Virus record (IMG/VR): IMGVR_UViG_2877982868_000002
Direction: 5' to 3' (one strand)
Origin: a virus
Taxonomy: Duplodnaviria; Heunggongvirae; Uroviricota; Caudoviricetes
Length of the DNA stretch: 48,765 bases
In this document: positions 14,762 to 48,074 of the stretch, one piece after another
Layout of the letters: each line of letters starts with the position of its first letter
How positions within the stretch are numbered: the first letter of the stretch is position 1
Position numbers and translations under genes: made by a program
The notes under the pieces: generated by a model
Told to the model about the DNA's origin: nothing
What the model saw: only the letters and a program-made list of their open reading frames with translations
Database searches by the model: none

Positions 14762-15030
14762 GTAAAGTCGTACGCATTATTTTCGAATACAAGGAGCACG
14801 TTATCCATAAAAACGCGGATGGAACAGTGCGCATGGGGATAAGTCTGGACATACGTTCAACCGGGATAAAGCAGAAAGGTGATGGACCTGCCATGATTTT
14901 TGGGGTGGTTATGCTCGCGGAAAGCAGAGACTTTGCTGAACTTGTGGCAATGAAAGCCAGTGCGCTCATGAAAGATATGAGCATGCGTTCCGGGGTTATT
15001 AAAGGTAATGAATTTAATCAGCAGGGGTAA
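14758..15030 (+). CDS. Hypothetical early protein (paralog 1)
   Basis: 90 aa; N-terminus MSKVVRIIFEYKEH shared with next gene. Confidence 0.45.
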   Translation: MSKVVRIIFEYKEHVIHKNADGTVRMGISLDIRSTGIKQKGDGPAMIFGVVMLAESRDFAELVAMKASALMKDMSMRSGVIKGNEFNQQG

Positions 15031-15034
15031 TTCC

Positions 15035-15328
15035 ATGAGCAAAGTACGCGTTATTTTTGAATTTAAGCATGTTTCGCATGACGAAAAACCGGCAGGCAAT
15101 GACTGTGTTGAAGTGCATGAAAAGATTGGTGTGGATGTAAAAACAGAACGTGATACGAATAACAGGCCGACGTCACTCTGTGACGTTTATGTAAGTATTC
15201 TCCAGTATCACAGTCCTGAAATTATTCAGTTTCTCTCAGCGGAATTTCAGGCATCTGTACAGGCTTTTGGGGCGGATGCCATCATTAAACGCCACCGCGT
15301 GCATAAAGCATCAGGCACACTGCAATAA
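15035..15328 (+). CDS. Hypothetical early protein (paralog 2)
   Basis: ATG at 15035 (MSKVRVIFEFKH...), 97 aa; N-terminal similarity to preceding ORF. Confidence 0.45.
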   Translation: MSKVRVIFEFKHVSHDEKPAGNDCVEVHEKIGVDVKTERDTNNRPTSLCDVYVSILQYHSPEIIQFLSAEFQASVQAFGADAIIKRHRVHKASGTLQ

Positions 15329-15870: not shown

Positions 15871-15967
15871 CACCACATTAAATCTTTAAATATCACATCG
15901 TTTTAATTATGGCGCTCGCGTCAGGGGACTGCCTGCGCCTGAAAGCTGAAAATAAGGAATCGGAAAC

Positions 15968-16510
15968 ATGGCATATTTTTATTTCAAATTAGACATAGTG
16001 TACACAAATAAATATTTAACCGAATATCAGCGGGATGTTTTACCGCTACGCAACAGTATTCTTCGGGCATTACTGAAAAATACAGGCGCTGCCGGATTGC
16101 GCTTAAAGCCGTTCGCCATGGACGTAATCAGTGAGTTTTATTTTTCTGGTTCTCTGCCTGCGGGCTGGCGTAAGCGCGATGATGTGGCTTTTATCGGGGG
16201 CGGACCGTGCTTTATTGCCAGACCTGATGAGTCATGCCCTGAAGGTCCGGCGATTGCCGCAATGGTTGAAGCCGCTGAACGCGAGTTAAGAAAGCGTCCT
16301 GATTTCCTTGTCTGGCTCTGTGAAAAGCTGGGGGTAATGAGAATCCCCTCCATGTTTAACACGGACTCCTGGTGGACCCCGTCACTCTCCCGTGATGCCC
16401 TGTGCGTGGTGTTTAAAGTAGGAACTTATGGCAGGGAAATAAAAGGGGGTATTCCTGAAGAATGCCAGGAGATTAAACATTCTGAATATGTGGCGCTGAC
16501 GGAGGAATAA
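15968..16510 (+). CDS. Hypothetical protein (semi-essential region)
   Basis: 180-aa ORF with SD aaggaa; AT-rich region. Confidence 0.45.
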   Translation: MAYFYFKLDIVYTNKYLTEYQRDVLPLRNSILRALLKNTGAAGLRLKPFAMDVISEFYFSGSLPAGWRKRDDVAFIGGGPCFIARPDESCPEGPAIAAMVEAAERELRKRPDFLVWLCEKLGVMRIPSMFNTDSWWTPSLSRDALCVVFKVGTYGREIKGGIPEECQEIKHSEYVALTEE

Positions 16511-17047: not shown

Positions 17048-17562
17048 TGTTCTTTAAAACATCAAACCCTTCCGCGCTGGCTGCGTGGCAAAAATACCAG
17101 CAGGACTGCCAGACGGTAAAAGATGAGGCGAAACGCCTTGAGGCCGTGCTGAATGTTGCGTGCCGGTCGGTATTTGAATTCAGTATCAGTGGTTTTTGTT
17201 TTAAGGGACTGCGTTTTACGGAGGACAAATATCCTTTTCATCGTGATTTATGGCGAAAACCAACTGCGTCGAATGGCTGGAGCTGCACACCGCGCACATC
17301 ACGTATTCCCAAAGCCCTGCGCGTTGCCTCTGACGAACTTAACAGTCTGTGGCGTGAATATTCGCCCGTCACGTATGCCAGAACCGATGCACTGTTGTTC
17401 TGGCTGGGCATTGATTTCTCGGCAATCCTGTTTGGCCCTGTGGAGTGGTTCTGCGTTGACGATGTGATTTACCTTCAGTGCGGCGTAAAACCCGCAAAAC
17501 AGAAAATGACCGAAATTCTGTCTGATGAGTTTTATGCTGCTGAAAAGCGAGTCAGGGGGTGA
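17047..17562 (+). CDS. Hypothetical protein (semi-essential region)
   Basis: 171-aa ORF; start overlaps previous stop. Confidence 0.45.
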   Translation: MFFKTSNPSALAAWQKYQQDCQTVKDEAKRLEAVLNVACRSVFEFSISGFCFKGLRFTEDKYPFHRDLWRKPTASNGWSCTPRTSRIPKALRVASDELNSLWREYSPVTYARTDALLFWLGIDFSAILFGPVEWFCVDDVIYLQCGVKPAKQKMTEILSDEFYAAEKRVRG

Positions 17563-17565
17563 TGC

Positions 17566-18117
17566 ATGATGATATTACAACCCATGGGGAGAAAAGGCCG
17601 TGCACCCGCTCATGTTCGCGCATGGACACCTGAAGAAGATGCGCTGCTGATTGCGCTTTATCCATCCACCCCGGTTAAGGATATTGCTGTCAGGATAAAA
17701 AGAAGTTTCTGGGGTGTACATAACCGGATTGTTTTATTACGCGGTACTTACCCGGAGTTGCTCAAATGCAAACGCCTCAGATTTAAACCTGATGAAGATA
17801 AATTTATCCGAAAAAATGCCAGAACAATGACCGGTAAGCAAATAGGAGAATATCTGGGGCGAGACCGGGATTCTGTCCACAATCGGGCGCGATATATTGG
17901 CGTAAGCATGAAAAAATACGGAGAGTTGCTGCCCTTCACCCGCATACCTGACGATGATGTTCGTCTTATTCGTGAATTACGGGATGCTGAATCACCACGG
18001 CGTCTTACCTTTAGGGAAATCGGCGAGAAATTTGAATTATCCGAGGGCACGGTGAGTTTTATTTATCACCGTCGTCGGACTGCCGAAGATGTTGTATTAC
18101 GGGAATTAATGCCATGA
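17566..18117 (+). CDS. Hypothetical DNA-binding protein with three internal SANT/Myb-like HTH repeats
   Basis: 183 aa; three ~45-aa repeats with pattern .PEEDxxLI...K.IA..I.RS...VHNR (WTPEEDALL, FKPDEDKFI, IPDDDVRLI). Confidence 0.5.
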   Translation: MMILQPMGRKGRAPAHVRAWTPEEDALLIALYPSTPVKDIAVRIKRSFWGVHNRIVLLRGTYPELLKCKRLRFKPDEDKFIRKNARTMTGKQIGEYLGRDRDSVHNRARYIGVSMKKYGELLPFTRIPDDDVRLIRELRDAESPRRLTFREIGEKFELSEGTVSFIYHRRRTAEDVVLRELMP

Positions 18118-18425
18118 TAACGACATTATTTGTTGAATCAGATGAACCCCTTGTGTGTGCCGTCGGAATGCCGGTCTGTGGCGGAACGCTGACCGGTGTT
18201 TATTTCGGGGATTTGCGCGGTTATCCCTGGCATTCACTGAATGATGCTTTCCCGCCTGATATGGAGGCTGTCGTGCTGATTGTTCAGTATGGTGACCAAC
18301 AGGAACTGCGCATCGGCCATATGGGGTATGAAGGCTTTTTTATTGATGAAGAAACCGGAGCCTGCCTTGAAGATGAGGACGGACAGGTGACGCACTGGTG
18401 CCATATTTCAGCTTTACCGGAATGA
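18114..18425 (+). CDS. Hypothetical small acidic protein
   Basis: 103-aa ORF, D/E-rich; start overlaps previous stop. Confidence 0.45.
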   Translation: MITTLFVESDEPLVCAVGMPVCGGTLTGVYFGDLRGYPWHSLNDAFPPDMEAVVLIVQYGDQQELRIGHMGYEGFFIDEETGACLEDEDGQVTHWCHISALPE

Positions 18426-18439
18426 CGGGAGGTGAATGC

Positions 18440-18790
18440 GTGAGAAGTTATATTGATAATGAAAAACTGAAGACAATCAGCGACTGTCTTAGCTTGCTGG
18501 CAAAAATAAAAGAAACCATTGAAGAGATTAAATTTCAGCTTGAATACGAACCCTGTGGCGATGATACATGGCGTAACTCTGCCAGAAAAGCACTGGCTGT
18601 CTTTCAGAAACAACGCCGGACTGTTGAATACCGCCTTGCTGTATTGCGCCAGGAGGAAAAGGAAAGAAATATAAGACGTCATGAACTCGTTAATGATTTT
18701 CTTGTTCGTGAATTAAAGGAGCGTGTGCCGGAGTCGGTATTTTTTGAGTGTGAGGCTGTTGCCCGTAGCAAAGCACTGGAAACTGATTAA
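18440..18790 (+). CDS. Hypothetical protein
   Basis: GTG 18440 preceded by gggagg SD; track ORF begins 18398; predicted coiled-coil-like. Confidence 0.4.
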   Translation: MRSYIDNEKLKTISDCLSLLAKIKETIEEIKFQLEYEPCGDDTWRNSARKALAVFQKQRRTVEYRLAVLRQEEKERNIRRHELVNDFLVRELKERVPESVFFECEAVARSKALETD

Positions 18791-18802
18791 ACAGGCAGGT
18801 GA

Positions 18803-19138
18803 ATGATGAGTATTGAATTAAGATCGTCTTATGAATATCGTAAAATTCTCATCGCCGGAGGCATGAAACCGGAAGATGCAGAAAAAATTGTTTCTTTTAT
18901 GGATAAAGAATGTGACAAACGGGATATGCCAGAAATTATTATGGATGACATGATTCTGCATTCAGCCGTAGCGTTAAGCCCGTTATGGATTGTGCATTCT
19001 CTTGCTGAAATTGCCAAAGGCACCGATAAACAGGCAGCTGTTGCTGCCCTTCAGACGCTTAATGAAATGCGTATATCTCCACGCCCGACATTAATACATA
19101 TGATTCTCTCCAGTATGGAGGATAAAGCAAATGAATAG
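18803..19138 (+). CDS. Hypothetical small acidic protein
   Basis: 111-aa ORF with SD. Confidence 0.45.
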   Translation: MMSIELRSSYEYRKILIAGGMKPEDAEKIVSFMDKECDKRDMPEIIMDDMILHSAVALSPLWIVHSLAEIAKGTDKQAAVAALQTLNEMRISPRPTLIHMILSSMEDKANE

Positions 19139-19328
19139 TCTACCCGCTGGATGGGCGCGGCCACTAATGGCCAGGAAGCATCATTTTTTTAAAACAGGCG
19201 AAAATATCAGTATATGTGGACGGTGGTTATATCTGGCTCATAATCGCGAGCCGGATACATTTGAAAGCCCTGATGACTGTGCCGAATGCCGCAGAAGAGT
19301 GAATAAGGAGAAAGATAATGGACAATAG
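19131..19328 (+). CDS. Hypothetical small Cys-containing protein
   Basis: 65 aa; C..C spacing (CGRW...CAEC) suggests zinc ribbon. Confidence 0.35.
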   Translation: MNSLPAGWARPLMARKHHFFKTGENISICGRWLYLAHNREPDTFESPDDCAECRRRVNKEKDNGQ

Positions 19329-19614
19329 TTCTCTGTTGTTCTGGTGCTTATATATCACATCCTTTTTCGGCGCATTTGTTATTACCCGGTGGTTATGTCG
19401 AAAAATCATCTGCTTTTTTGATAAAAGACATCCGGTTGAACGGGCGGCTGATGCGCTCATTCAGCAGGCCATTGTGTTATATAGCGGTGAATTTTTCTGC
19501 CGAATAACAACCAGAGATGGCTGGCACATAATGATTATTCCACCAACACACCATGCCCGGTGGGATGAGGCAGAAAAGGCTTTCCATGTCCGTAAAAAGG
19601 TAAATACGGTATGA
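19318..19614 (+). CDS. Hypothetical membrane protein
   Basis: 98 aa; N-terminal hydrophobic helix LLFWCLYITSFFGAFVI. Confidence 0.4.
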   Translation: MDNSSLLFWCLYITSFFGAFVITRWLCRKIICFFDKRHPVERAADALIQQAIVLYSGEFFCRITTRDGWHIMIIPPTHHARWDEAEKAFHVRKKVNTV

Positions 19615-20120: not shown

Positions 20121-20189
20121 CCCCAAATCCCGCCACAGCGCGGGATTTTTATTTTAAACTTACCGGGAACGCGAGAACCGGAGGCTGAT

Positions 20190-43946: not shown

Positions 43947-44507
43947 ATGCTGATTGGCTATATACGCGTATCAACAAATGACCAGAACACAGGTTTACAA
44001 AGAAATGCGCTGGAATGTGCAGGATGTGAGCAGATTTTTGAAGATAAAATGAGTGGTAAAACGACACAGCGGCCGGGACTGAAGCGGGCACTGAAGAAAC
44101 TAAAACCCGGTGACACACTGATGGTCTGGAAACTGGACAGGCTGGGGCGCAGTATGCGCCACCTTGTTGCGCTGACAGATGAATTACAGCAACAGGGGAT
44201 AAATTTTCGTAGTCTTACTGACAACATTGATACGTCAACCCCCATGGGGCGCTTCTTTTTTCACATAATGGGTGCGCTGGCAGAAATGGAGCGTGAATTA
44301 ATTGTCGAACGGACACGGGCTGGTCTTGCAGCTGCCCGTGAAAGGGGACGAACCGGCGGCAGACCCCGTCGTCTCACGCAGGAACAATACGAGCAGGTCG
44401 GGCGTTTACTGGCCGGGGGTGTCAGTCGAAGACAGGTGGCACTTATTTTTGATATCGGCCTTTCAACCCTTTATCGTTATTATCCTGCGAGCGTTTCGGA
44501 AAAATAA
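43947..44507 (+). CDS. gin: Serine DNA invertase (Gin/Hin/Pin/Cin family)
   Basis: 186 aa; MLIGYIRVSTNDQ catalytic Ser motif, resolvase core, C-terminal HTH; SD aaggaagg. Confidence 0.9.
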   Translation: MLIGYIRVSTNDQNTGLQRNALECAGCEQIFEDKMSGKTTQRPGLKRALKKLKPGDTLMVWKLDRLGRSMRHLVALTDELQQQGINFRSLTDNIDTSTPMGRFFFHIMGALAEMERELIVERTRAGLAAARERGRTGGRPRRLTQEQYEQVGRLLAGGVSRRQVALIFDIGLSTLYRYYPASVSEK

Positions 44508-44606: not shown

Positions 44607-46646
44607 ATGACGTCCAAATGGGTTCAACTATCATCAATGCCCGGAAACTTTACTGTTAAAGTTTCCGGTGGTACAGCGGCATTTCTTGAGGCTCCCTTTC
44701 CTCCGGCCGAAACAAAAGGAGGAATGACATTTGCTGACTGTCTCATCAGTTTTAATACACGGGATTGCCTGTGGGTAAGGCCAGTATCCGGTGATCCGAG
44801 TGTGGAAATTACCGGAGCGGGTATTGGTGCGGTCATTCCGTTAAGTGCTGATGTTGCCGGTACTGCTGAACCGTCAGACTGGGATAATGCTGAAACACAT
44901 ACCCGTCCGTCAGGAAATGAAACTGCTTCCAGCTCCCCTTCCTGGTATTACGTGGTGGTTCTTGCTGGTCAGTCAAACGGTATGGCTTACGGTGAAGGTC
45001 TGCCACTGCCGGAGACATATGACCGCCCCGAACCGCGTATTATGCAGTTAGCCCGTCGCAGTACAGTCACGCCGGGAGGTAAAGCCTGTCAGTATAACGA
45101 CATCATTCTGGCCGACCACTGTCTGCATGATGTGCAGGATATGAGTGGAAAAAATCACCCGAAAGCGGATGTGGCTAAAGGGCAATATGGCACCGTGGGT
45201 CAGGGGCTTCACATTGCCAAAAAACTGCTGCCGTTTATTCCGGCAGATGCGGGGATTCTGCTGGTTCCCTGCTGCCGTGGTGGTTCTGCATTCACGGCGG
45301 GTGCTGACGGCACGTACAGTGACAACACGGGTGCTTCAGAGGACTCAGCCCGCTGGGGTGTGGATAAGCCGCTGTATAAGGACTTAATCAGCCGGACAAA
45401 AGCGGCACTGGCGAAGAACCCGAAAAACCGCCTGCTTGCTGTGGTGTGGATGCAGGGCGAGTTTGATATTGATGCGAAGCCGACGGAGCATTCCGCGCTG
45501 TTTCTGGCGATGGTGGAAAAATTCCGCGCAGACCTGGCTGAACAGGCGGAACAGTGTACCGGTGGCAGTGCTGCTGGCGTTCCGTGGATTTGTGGCGATA
45601 CCACGTATTTCTGGAAACAGAAAAATGAACCGGCATACCAGGCAATCTATGGCGGCTACAAAAACAAAACAGATAAAAACATTCATTTCGTTCCATTAAT
45701 GACAGATGAAAATGACGCGAATGTACCCACCAACAATCCGGCAGAAGACCCGGATATTGAATCCATTGGTTATTACGGCTCAACGTGGCGTAACAGTGCC
45801 GCCACCTGGACATCTGCGGACCGGGCCAGCCATTTCAGTTCATGGGCACGTCGTGGGATTATTTCCGACCGTCTGGCCACGGCAGTTCTGACTCATGCGG
45901 GGCGAACCACAGTAAAAGCCGATGTTCCATCTTCTGAAACTGAAGCACCAGTGCCGTCACCTTCAGAAACTGAAGCAGTAACCACAACACTGCTGTCTTA
46001 TCGTGTCAGTGAGTCAGAAGGAAATCTGAAAGCCCAGGGCTGGGAGCCGGCTGGCGGTAAAGCTGAAATTATCAGTGATGCAGGAGGCACAGGTGGTAAG
46101 GCAATGAAACTGACCAAGGAAACAGGTAAATCATCTTGGTATCTGGATCATGATGCCGGTACTGGTGCTGAACTGCTGAAAAATGGTGGTTTAATCAGTT
46201 GTCGTTTTAAAGTACCTGGCGACCTGGTGGCAAACCAGTATGTCATGGGGCTTTACTGGCCGGTTTCCTCTCTGCCGCAGGGTGTCACCCTGACAGGGGA
46301 TGCAGGGAATAATCTGCTGGCATCGTTCTACATCCAGACAGACGCAAAAGACCTGAATGTGATGTACCACAATGCAAAAGTGGCAACAAATAACCAGAAA
46401 CTGGGAACCTTTGGTGCATTTGATAATGAATGGCATACGCTGGCCTTCCGTTTTGCAGGAAATAACAGCCTTCAGGTTATTCCGGTTATTGATGGTCAGG
46501 ATGGTGCCGCGTTTACCCTGACGCAGTCACCAGTAGGAACTTTCCCGGTGGACAAACTCCGCGTAACGGATATCACAAAAAATGCAACTTACCCGGTGCT
46601 GATTGACAGCATTGTGGTGGAAGTGAAAAAAGCGGTAACAGAATAA
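44607..46646 (+). CDS. Multidomain carbohydrate esterase, SGNH/SASA-like (candidate sialate O-acetylesterase, NanS-p-like) with C-terminal putative glycan-binding domain
   Basis: 679 aa; VVLAGQSNGMAYGEG motif typical of SASA/SGNH esterases; Ser/Thr/Pro linker with SETEA duplication; located in cargo position between gin and com. Confidence 0.55.
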   Translation: MTSKWVQLSSMPGNFTVKVSGGTAAFLEAPFPPAETKGGMTFADCLISFNTRDCLWVRPVSGDPSVEITGAGIGAVIPLSADVAGTAEPSDWDNAETHTRPSGNETASSSPSWYYVVVLAGQSNGMAYGEGLPLPETYDRPEPRIMQLARRSTVTPGGKACQYNDIILADHCLHDVQDMSGKNHPKADVAKGQYGTVGQGLHIAKKLLPFIPADAGILLVPCCRGGSAFTAGADGTYSDNTGASEDSARWGVDKPLYKDLISRTKAALAKNPKNRLLAVVWMQGEFDIDAKPTEHSALFLAMVEKFRADLAEQAEQCTGGSAAGVPWICGDTTYFWKQKNEPAYQAIYGGYKNKTDKNIHFVPLMTDENDANVPTNNPAEDPDIESIGYYGSTWRNSAATWTSADRASHFSSWARRGIISDRLATAVLTHAGRTTVKADVPSSETEAPVPSPSETEAVTTTLLSYRVSESEGNLKAQGWEPAGGKAEIISDAGGTGGKAMKLTKETGKSSWYLDHDAGTGAELLKNGGLISCRFKVPGDLVANQYVMGLYWPVSSLPQGVTLTGDAGNNLLASFYIQTDAKDLNVMYHNAKVATNNQKLGTFGAFDNEWHTLAFRFAGNNSLQVIPVIDGQDGAAFTLTQSPVGTFPVDKLRVTDITKNATYPVLIDSIVVEVKKAVTE

Positions 46647-47873: not shown

Positions 47874-48074
47874 ATGTATCGAAACATACGGTGCCGACAC
47901 TGCAATAAGCTACTGGCACGGGCCAGTTTCAGTTATCTGGAAGTAAAATGTCCGCGCTGTAAAACCCTCAATCAAATCACATCTCCGAGCGCCACAGAGC
48001 ACCCCACATACACAAGGAAATCCTGTCGTGGGGAACAGAAAGCAAGTCACATCCCGAATCATCAGCACGCCTGA
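47874..48074 (+). CDS. com: Com translational activator of mom (zinc-finger)
   Basis: 66 aa from ATG 47874 with SD ggagg; [11 protein letters not shown]...CPRCKT Cys4 motif as in Mu Com; overlaps mom start. Confidence 0.75.

Follow-up and report, generated by a model that had tools for sequence, protein, structure and literature searches.

A D5-like protein with three helix-turn-helix units, apparently an early product of a Mu-like prophage of Escherichia coli

Which known phage proteins does a chain of three small helix-turn-helix (HTH) units belong with, and what would such a protein do among the early genes of a Mu-like phage? The question is raised by the gene at positions 17566..18117 of IMG/VR record IMGVR_UViG_2877982868_000002, a 48,765-nucleotide stretch of tailed-phage DNA (Caudoviricetes), the whole of which is called the window here. 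To judge from its sequence the window is a Mu-like prophage of Escherichia coli, with the left end of the prophage at 9672. The open reading frame (ORF) lies exactly where the preliminary description of this DNA had placed it, on the plus strand, and according to the ORF list encodes 183 amino acids followed by a stop codon; the product is strongly basic (isoelectric point, pI, 10.2) and is annotated as a 'DNA-binding protein' (WP_000973023.1) in an identical locus of E. coli O157. The protein is a fairly ordinary member of an already catalogued phage family of HTH-repeat proteins, the D5-like family, and is probably an early accessory protein that binds duplex DNA.

Its place in that family is seen in the match to phrog_323, 'transcriptional regulator, D5-like', where residues 2-182 align with profile positions 80-256 of 319 (E 6.3e-58, 197.8 bits). 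Protein D5 of phage T5 (T5.118, 255 amino acids) aligns by hhalign with the alignment of homologues at 96.6% and E 6e-10 over 151 columns, query residues 17-171 running along D5 residues 71-232 with all three units in register and in the same order; T5 was not listed at E 1e-3 or better in a tblastn search of phage records with the D5-like protein. According to the T5 record, D5 binds DNA, is needed for DNA replication and late transcription and has a part in shutoff, and its gene adjoins those for the D6 helicase, primase and polymerase. The second named relative is Mu gp9 (E8, Mup09; 99 amino acids; L060 5482-5781), encoded just upstream of gam and homologous to units 2-3 (hhalign 97.8%, E 8.5e-13, 36% identity over 90 columns), its first unit aligning with our unit 2 and its last with unit 3. 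To our knowledge gp9 has no experimentally defined role, and its annotation gives none. In the window's phage, the slot of gp9 is taken by an unrelated gene at 15008-15328.

The preliminary description had held that an array of this kind is unusual for a phage early protein. It is in fact common, as PHROG 323, T5 D5 and Mu gp9 illustrate: an exhaustive profile search returned 12,956 relatives at E 1e-3 or better, and phage proteins with two or three HTH units are numerous in BFVD. One group of relatives, proteins of about 170-216 amino acids with the same three-unit layout, forms a coherent subfamily whose linker 2 and unit 3 carry the motif K.GD....T+..D.DV.LIR.LRD...LTF.EI..KF. A second group includes many long proteins with repeat arrays of up to 10 matched stretches; one relative of 762 amino acids consists almost entirely of repeats, and the metagenomic protein P0033 has a ResIII/Helicase_C helicase followed by a repeat array with nine W[TA]QEED anchor motifs and, like other multi-repeat relatives, scores well above the Pfam Myb_DNA-binding threshold (140 bits). 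The 'replication origin binding' helicase T5.108 (L059 14546-17332) has an annotated SANT/Myb InterPro domain as well. Since both of these helicases carry it, the HTH repeat appears to serve replication enzymes too, as an array that targets them to DNA. A profile scan of genome contigs, limited by its pattern and to one genome per species, found a single irrelevant distant locus. Published work on phage Myb/SANT proteins, GcrA-like phage proteins, Mu-like prophage Sp18 and the Mu semi-essential region yielded nothing on the D5-like protein, and only a preprint on T5 D5 and retrons proved useful (PMC13405049). In that 2026 preprint T5 D5 had the expected mass of 26 kDa by mass photometry (PMC13405049).

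The protein had been described as three tandem repeats of about 45 residues, each with an acidic start and a VHNR end. This holds for units 1 and 2 (W20-TPEED...GVHNR54 and F74-KPDED...SVHNR107), which are true repeats; unit 3 shares the acidic start (I127-PDDD...) but ends in ...TVSFIYHRRR instead of VHNR, and is a divergent HTH with a weak sequence relation to the others. The units themselves are some 40-45 residues long and are joined by linkers of about 10, with a period of 53-54 residues. The internal periodicity is real by hhalign, by a repeat hidden Markov model (HMM) and by Smith-Waterman alignment of single sequences against 5000 shuffles, where unit 1 matches unit 2 with z 4.0 (p 0.004) and unit 2 matches unit 3 in register, apart from a 5-residue insertion (z 3.0, p 0.013); the score of unit 1 against unit 3 was not significant (p 0.13). 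Profiles of the units, taken as sub-alignments of 25 homologues, give hhalign probabilities of 98.1% for units 1 and 2 (E 9e-14), 61% for units 2 and 3 (E 8e-5) and 10% for units 1 and 3. The repeat HMM, which was built independently from 357 repeats of unrelated multi-repeat proteins, scores the three units at 35.5, 44.5 and 1.1 bits, its match in unit 3 being limited to the helix 2-turn-helix 3 part. The chain thus consists of two bona fide repeats and a third HTH, analogous to them in structure, whose sequence has diverged. No tandem repeat is present at the DNA level in the gene, so the duplication of the units is old; a recent tandem duplication of the DNA was considered and rejected for the same lack of repeats in the coding sequence.

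Structure prediction agrees with the three-unit reading. The AlphaFold2 model, made from the 25-sequence alignment (mean predicted local distance difference test score, pLDDT, 84.9; predicted template-modelling score, pTM, 0.54), consists of three three-helix bundles and a C-terminal helix. Helices are predicted at residues 22-31, 37-43 and 48-59 in unit 1, 75-84, 90-97 and 101-110 in unit 2, and 129-140, 149-156 and 160-169 in unit 3, with 48-59 and 101-110 as the putative recognition helices of the first two. Ahead of unit 1 lies an arm with the motif L.PMG.PG.CP.H, which is conserved in the three-unit subfamily though it is predicted to be disordered (pLDDT 44-63); G11 and H16 are invariant in the homologue alignment, M2, L4, P6 and P14 nearly so, and the arm is kept in relatives of 31-53% identity. 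It may serve as an arm for the minor groove or as a short motif that binds a partner. The C-terminal helix carries the motif R.TA.DA..RE.LP, also conserved in the subfamily.

As to the kind of HTH, the array had been called SANT/Myb-like, and this stands for the tandem tri-helical layout and the alignment to c-Myb, while unit 3 looks more like a sigma-70 region 4 or an AsnC-type HTH. Against the sequences of the Protein Data Bank (PDB), the family profile finds c-Myb R2R3 at E 4e-6 in a continuous, in-register alignment over units 1-2, query residues 18-105 to c-Myb residues 60-149, with R2R3-like spacing. Each unit is a three-helix domain of about 50 residues in which helices 2 and 3 form the HTH, as in Myb/SANT domains. 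Pfam Myb_DNA-binding is matched by 19 of the 25 homologues at E 0.01 or better (best 6.3e-9), while the D5-like protein alone scores 16.9 bits against cut-offs of 24.4 (PF00249) and 22.9 (PF13921). Of the signature tryptophans of Myb only the first is kept, as W20 in unit 1 and as F74 in unit 2; the second and third are replaced by aliphatic residues (V/T and L in the alignment), so the tryptophan core of Myb is not there. The best structural match of a single unit is the DNA-binding domain of GcrA, whose N-terminal fold the D5-like protein shares; PF07750, the GcrA family with its C-terminal domain, was not among its Pfam matches at E 10 or better. A whole-chain Foldseek search of the PDB gave nothing significant (best E 0.08), as expected for domains joined by flexible linkers.

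Unit 3 has matches of its own, all of them below threshold. Sigma70_r4 scores 23.3 bits on residues 145-169 against a cut-off of 24.1 and is matched on unit 3 by 18 of the 25 homologues (best 8.9e-7); TIGR02937 scores 18.9 bits against 42.9, over region 4 only. Pfam gives no match to Sigma70_r2, and membership of the sigma-70 family was rejected on this domain content. HTH_AsnC-type scores 21.5 bits on residues 131-163 against a cut-off of 27, and this sub-threshold match, together with source names such as 'AsnC family protein', is what would speak for the D5-like protein being an AsnC/Lrp-family regulator, the name under which many database entries list it. That identity is extremely improbable: there is no Pfam match to the AsnC_trans_reg/RAM effector domain, the AlphaFold2 model is all-helical, and the rest of the protein is made of two Myb/GcrA-type repeats, the name stemming from a weak generic HTH match. 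AsnC/Lrp membership was accordingly rejected on domain content, and without a RAM domain the database name 'AsnC family protein' is unjustified.

The gene lies inside the early (Pe) operon of the Mu-like prophage. A 2.7-kb stretch that includes it occurs in identical copies in E. coli O157:H7 genomes, where the order is a Ner-like HTH protein, Mu transposase, AAA ATPase (B), five small genes and Gam, followed by three genes without assigned function, the D5-like gene, five small genes and gp16/GemA, and then by a Mor-family activator and a lysozyme; Pfam and PHROG scans confirm Gam, the Mu gp11 homologue, GemA, Mor and Ner in the window. The same slot (gp11, a 171-amino-acid gene, the D5-like gene, a 103-amino-acid gene ... 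GemA) is found in about 40 Mu-like loci of viral contigs, and about 230 complete E. coli genomes carry the gene, among them O157 and other Shiga toxin-producing (STEC) strains. The stop codon of the upstream gene leaves no intergenic space for a promoter, and no internal promoter in the early operon rose above shuffle expectation. With a Shine-Dalgarno-like sequence in position, that stop codon close upstream, and a start/stop overlap with the next early gene, the D5-like gene is embedded in the operon; the overlap suggests translational coupling. The operon ends at an intrinsic terminator (-13.5 kcal/mol, z -4.2; 0 of 200 shuffles fold as well) that lies 4 nucleotides (nt) past the GemA stop; about 40 nt separate it from the only Mor/C-family gene (20190-20615). 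Mu has two activators, Mor and C, and its gemA overlaps mor; since the terminator precedes the only Mor/C-family gene of the window's lineage, the regulatory cascade there must differ from Mu's. Ner and the D5-like protein are the only early-operon products with recognisable DNA-binding domains, and a six-frame HMM scan found no second D5-like gene elsewhere in the window.

A similar neighbourhood recurs outside the Mu-like phages. P2-like prophages of Salmonella and Citrobacter carry homologues of 35-48% identity in the early operon, and in 13 P2-like loci the D5-like gene is directly upstream of gene A, the replication endonuclease, whose start it overlaps by 4 nt in all six of those with called genes (L003-L008). 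It lies shortly downstream of a Dam-type (MethyltransfD12) methyltransferase gene in 12 of the 13 (L003-L008, L052-L057), the Citrobacter phage locus L002 being the one without. The common context of the Mu-like, P2-like and T5 homologues is an early operon beside a replication module. In mycobacteriophages, the stretches that match units 1-2 carry annotations as DNA methylases or HNH endonucleases.

The overlap with gpA bears on the view that the D5-like protein is mainly a protein-binding adaptor, in which units 1-2 would give a general affinity for DNA, as in GcrA, and linker 2, helices 1-2 of unit 3 and the C-terminal helix would form a docking surface for RNA polymerase (with unit 3 as a sigma region 4 look-alike) or for gpA or MuA/MuB. 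GcrA pairs a DNA-binding domain with a sigma-70-binding domain. The near-threshold Sigma70_r4 score of unit 3 and its recurrence among the homologues, the GcrA domain as top structural match of a unit, and the conservation pattern of the family point in this direction, the most conserved segments being helices 1-2 of unit 3 (lowest column entropy), linker 2 and the C-terminus rather than the recognition helices. We nevertheless consider the adaptor role quite unlikely: no partner has been identified, the C-terminal domain of GcrA has no match in the protein, and whole-chain Foldseek comparison with sigma factors was not significant (E at least 0.08, TM-score about 0.18).

Variation among natural alleles gives a different view of the same surfaces. 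Between the window and a common allele of 72-73% identity, synonymous divergence (dS) is 0.69 in the D5-like gene and 0.12-0.16 in the flanking genes, and the raised divergence is confined to this one gene. Among 26 distinct alleles, amino-acid changes are concentrated in the turn-plus-helix-3 segment of every unit. There 29 of 41 codons vary, compared with 25 of 89 in helices 1-2 (Fisher p 7e-6), and the ratio of nonsynonymous to synonymous polymorphism (pN/pS) is 0.64 against 0.18, with similar pS. The helix-3 types recombine as modules, in the combinations a-a-a, a-a-b, a-b-b and c-c-c. The exchange of old alleles by recombination accounts for much of this pattern, and positive selection is not demonstrated, since pN/pS stays below 1. 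The pattern suggests that the DNA-contact surface has been retuned between phage lineages.

Two further explanations were considered. In one, the D5-like protein would be a sequence-specific early-to-late switch that stands in for Mor, activating the Mor/C-family gene or allowing read-through into it. In its favour, a strong terminator stands between GemA and the only Mor-family gene, where Mu has its gemA-mor overlap, the D5-like protein is the sole early-operon product besides Ner with recognisable DNA-binding domains, and the T5 record has D5 as needed for late transcription. This remains rather doubtful, however. The terminator is only about 40 bp from the Mor-family start codon, with no promoter-like site reported, and no co-variation was seen between the helix-3 types of the alleles and the sequence type of the GemA-Mor region, loci L028 and L029 having the same helix types in units 2 and 3 yet Mor at 100% and 84% identity. 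Moreover, the family is present in P2-like phages, where the late switch works via Ogr, and Mu carries both Mor and the D5-like gp9.

The other explanation is an arms race with host defence, in which the HTH surfaces would have been shaped by host immunity, being sensed as T5 D5 is by a retron or serving to neutralise a defence nucleic acid, and the diversification of helix 3 would represent escape or retargeting. T5 D5, which aligns with our protein over all three units, is an HTH protein that is toxic when expressed alone and triggers the type IX retron-Kva2, as proposed through binding of its HTH to the retron's msdDNA (an AlphaFold3 prediction), and a phage that escapes this retron carries D5 mutations (PMC13405049). 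The divergence island formed by the gene, the concentration of variation in the recognition helices and the shuffling of helix types between alleles would all fit. An arms race is unlikely nonetheless: the case for it is an analogy with one preprint, pN/pS is below 1 even in helix 3, the raised dS points to old alleles exchanged by recombination with no proven burst of positive selection, PADLOC defence models gave no real match for the D5-like gene and four neighbours, and no defence gene is linked to the locus. A bolder proposal, to which we give a fairly small chance, is that the recognition helices are exchangeable specificity cassettes. Each phage lineage might then retune an extended DNA or retron-msDNA-like target under pressure from defence systems that sense D5-like HTH folds; or, to go by the layout of the operon, the protein might double as the missing early-to-late switch.

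The reading that we favour thus remains that of an early, duplex-DNA-binding accessory protein of the D5-like family. After induction the protein would be made with the other early proteins and would engage duplex DNA as a monomer, with as many as three recognition helices set into consecutive major grooves, in the manner of c-Myb R2R3 and of the bipartite domain of Tc3 transposase. Like T5 D5, it may play an accessory part at the junction of early transcription and replication, modulating early or host transcription and/or replication of the phage DNA; it would not be a classical dimeric operator-binding repressor. Of the multi-site DNA-binding regulator that the preliminary description proposed, multi-site binding is the most reasonable reading, given the pI and the annotation of T5 D5, while the word 'regulator' is something we infer.

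Several points weigh against this interpretation. Taken alone, the D5-like protein falls below every Pfam gathering threshold, and SANT-type domains can bind proteins rather than DNA. Because T5 D5 has an extra N-terminal part of 70 amino acids, the two proteins may differ in function. With a pTM of just 0.54, the AlphaFold2 model does not fix how the three units are placed relative to one another. A search of the early region for short direct repeats gave no DNA target, only four two-copy families, all in coding sequence and none interpretable. Where orthologous regulators share an operator, the recognition helix is as a rule their best-conserved part; in the three-unit subfamily the recognition helices are highly variable, exceeded only by linker 1 and in part by helix 2 of unit 1. 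Such low conservation of helix 3 fits non-specific binding or changing targets, and could also reflect weak constraint.

The features of the gene and its surroundings are collected in Table 1, together with three genes from the right-hand part of the window.

Table 1. Positions in the window of the D5-like gene, the parts of its product, adjoining signals and other features.
Feature	Position	Strand	Basis
Shine-Dalgarno-like GGGGG, 6 nt 5' of the ATG	17555..17559	+	sequence reading
Stop codon of the upstream gene, 3 nt 5' of the D5-like ATG	17560-17562	+	sequence, ORF list
Whole ORF, D5-like early protein with three HTH units	17566..18117	+	ORF list, PHROG match
N-terminal arm, residues 1-17 (MMILQPMGRKGRAPAHV)	17566..17616	+	conservation; pLDDT 44-63
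Unit 1, residues 18-60, Myb/GcrA-type HTH (WTPEED...VHNRIVLLRG)	17617..17745	+	repeat HMM, hhalign, AlphaFold2
Unit 2, residues 72-113, Myb/GcrA-type HTH (RFKPDED...VHNRARYIGV)	17779..17904	+	repeat HMM, AlphaFold2
Unit 3, residues 126-170, divergent HTH (IPDDDVRLIRELRD...LTFREIGEKF...VSFIYHRR)	17941..18075	+	sub-threshold Pfam, AlphaFold2
C-terminal helix, residues 171-183 (RTAEDVVLRELMP)	18076..18114	+	AlphaFold2 helix 173-181; conservation
ATGA overlap of the D5-like stop with the start of the next early gene (103 amino acids, PHROG 6925)	18114..18117	+	sequence
Intrinsic terminator after GemA, 9-bp GC-rich stem and T-run	20125..20157	+	RNA fold
Gin-like serine invertase (Resolvase + HTH_7), prophage right end	43947-44507		domain scan
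679-amino-acid protein with SASA carbohydrate-esterase domain and DUF6645, prophage right end	44607-46646		domain scan
Mom-family gene running off the right end of the window	48028-48765		domain scan

The early region is strongly mosaic: the blocks at 15900-16500 and 18400-19600 are swapped for unrelated sequence (15-57% apparent identity) between prophages that are otherwise 90-100% identical. The upstream 171-amino-acid gene (PHROG 2314) contains an imperfect direct repeat of 28 nt (17293-17320 and 17363-17390; 71% identity, 70 nt apart), which is likely to be a coincidence or else to reflect a small repeat within the encoded protein.

How the abundant D5-like early proteins of phages work is still poorly understood, and an uncharacterised prophage gene is now linked to T5 D5 and Mu gp9 and relieved of the misleading name 'AsnC family protein'. 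That link and the modular variation of helix 3 are the only points of moderate interest here. Natural alleles that differ almost only in their three recognition helices offer a convenient system for work on the binding targets of D5-like proteins, and for asking whether their HTH surfaces face immune pressure.

Comparison with T5 D5 brings out both a shared setting and clear differences. T5 D5 too is an early protein encoded beside replication genes, as the P2-like homologues are beside gpA, but it belongs to a virulent phage, is extended by about 70 residues at the N-terminus, ends in a longer tail rich in alanine and lysine, and lacks the L.PMG.PG.CP.H arm. Mu gp9 shares the early operon (semi-essential region) of a transposable phage and the same D5-like annotation; it has two units only, without unit 1, the N-terminal arm or the C-terminal helix, and is encoded upstream of gam, whereas the D5-like gene lies downstream of the gp11/gp12 homologues. 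Among cellular proteins, c-Myb R2R3 and other eukaryotic Myb proteins have the tandem tri-helical units of about 50 residues and the W-T-x-E-E-D start of helix 1; the D5-like protein, from a prokaryotic virus, is without the second and third signature tryptophans and stays below the Pfam thresholds. GcrA (of Caulobacter, PDB 5yiu, and GcrA-like proteins of phages) has its Pfam model matched by the multi-repeat relatives, and it shares with the D5-like units the pattern W-T...IA..LG...AV..R...LGL; it combines one HTH with a C-terminal sigma-70-interacting domain, where the D5-like protein has three HTH units instead. The archaeal CRISPR-repeat-binding protein (PDB 2lvs) and the bipartite domain of Tc3 transposase (1u78) are mechanistic analogues only, their likeness to the D5-like protein being distant or purely structural, with no common context.

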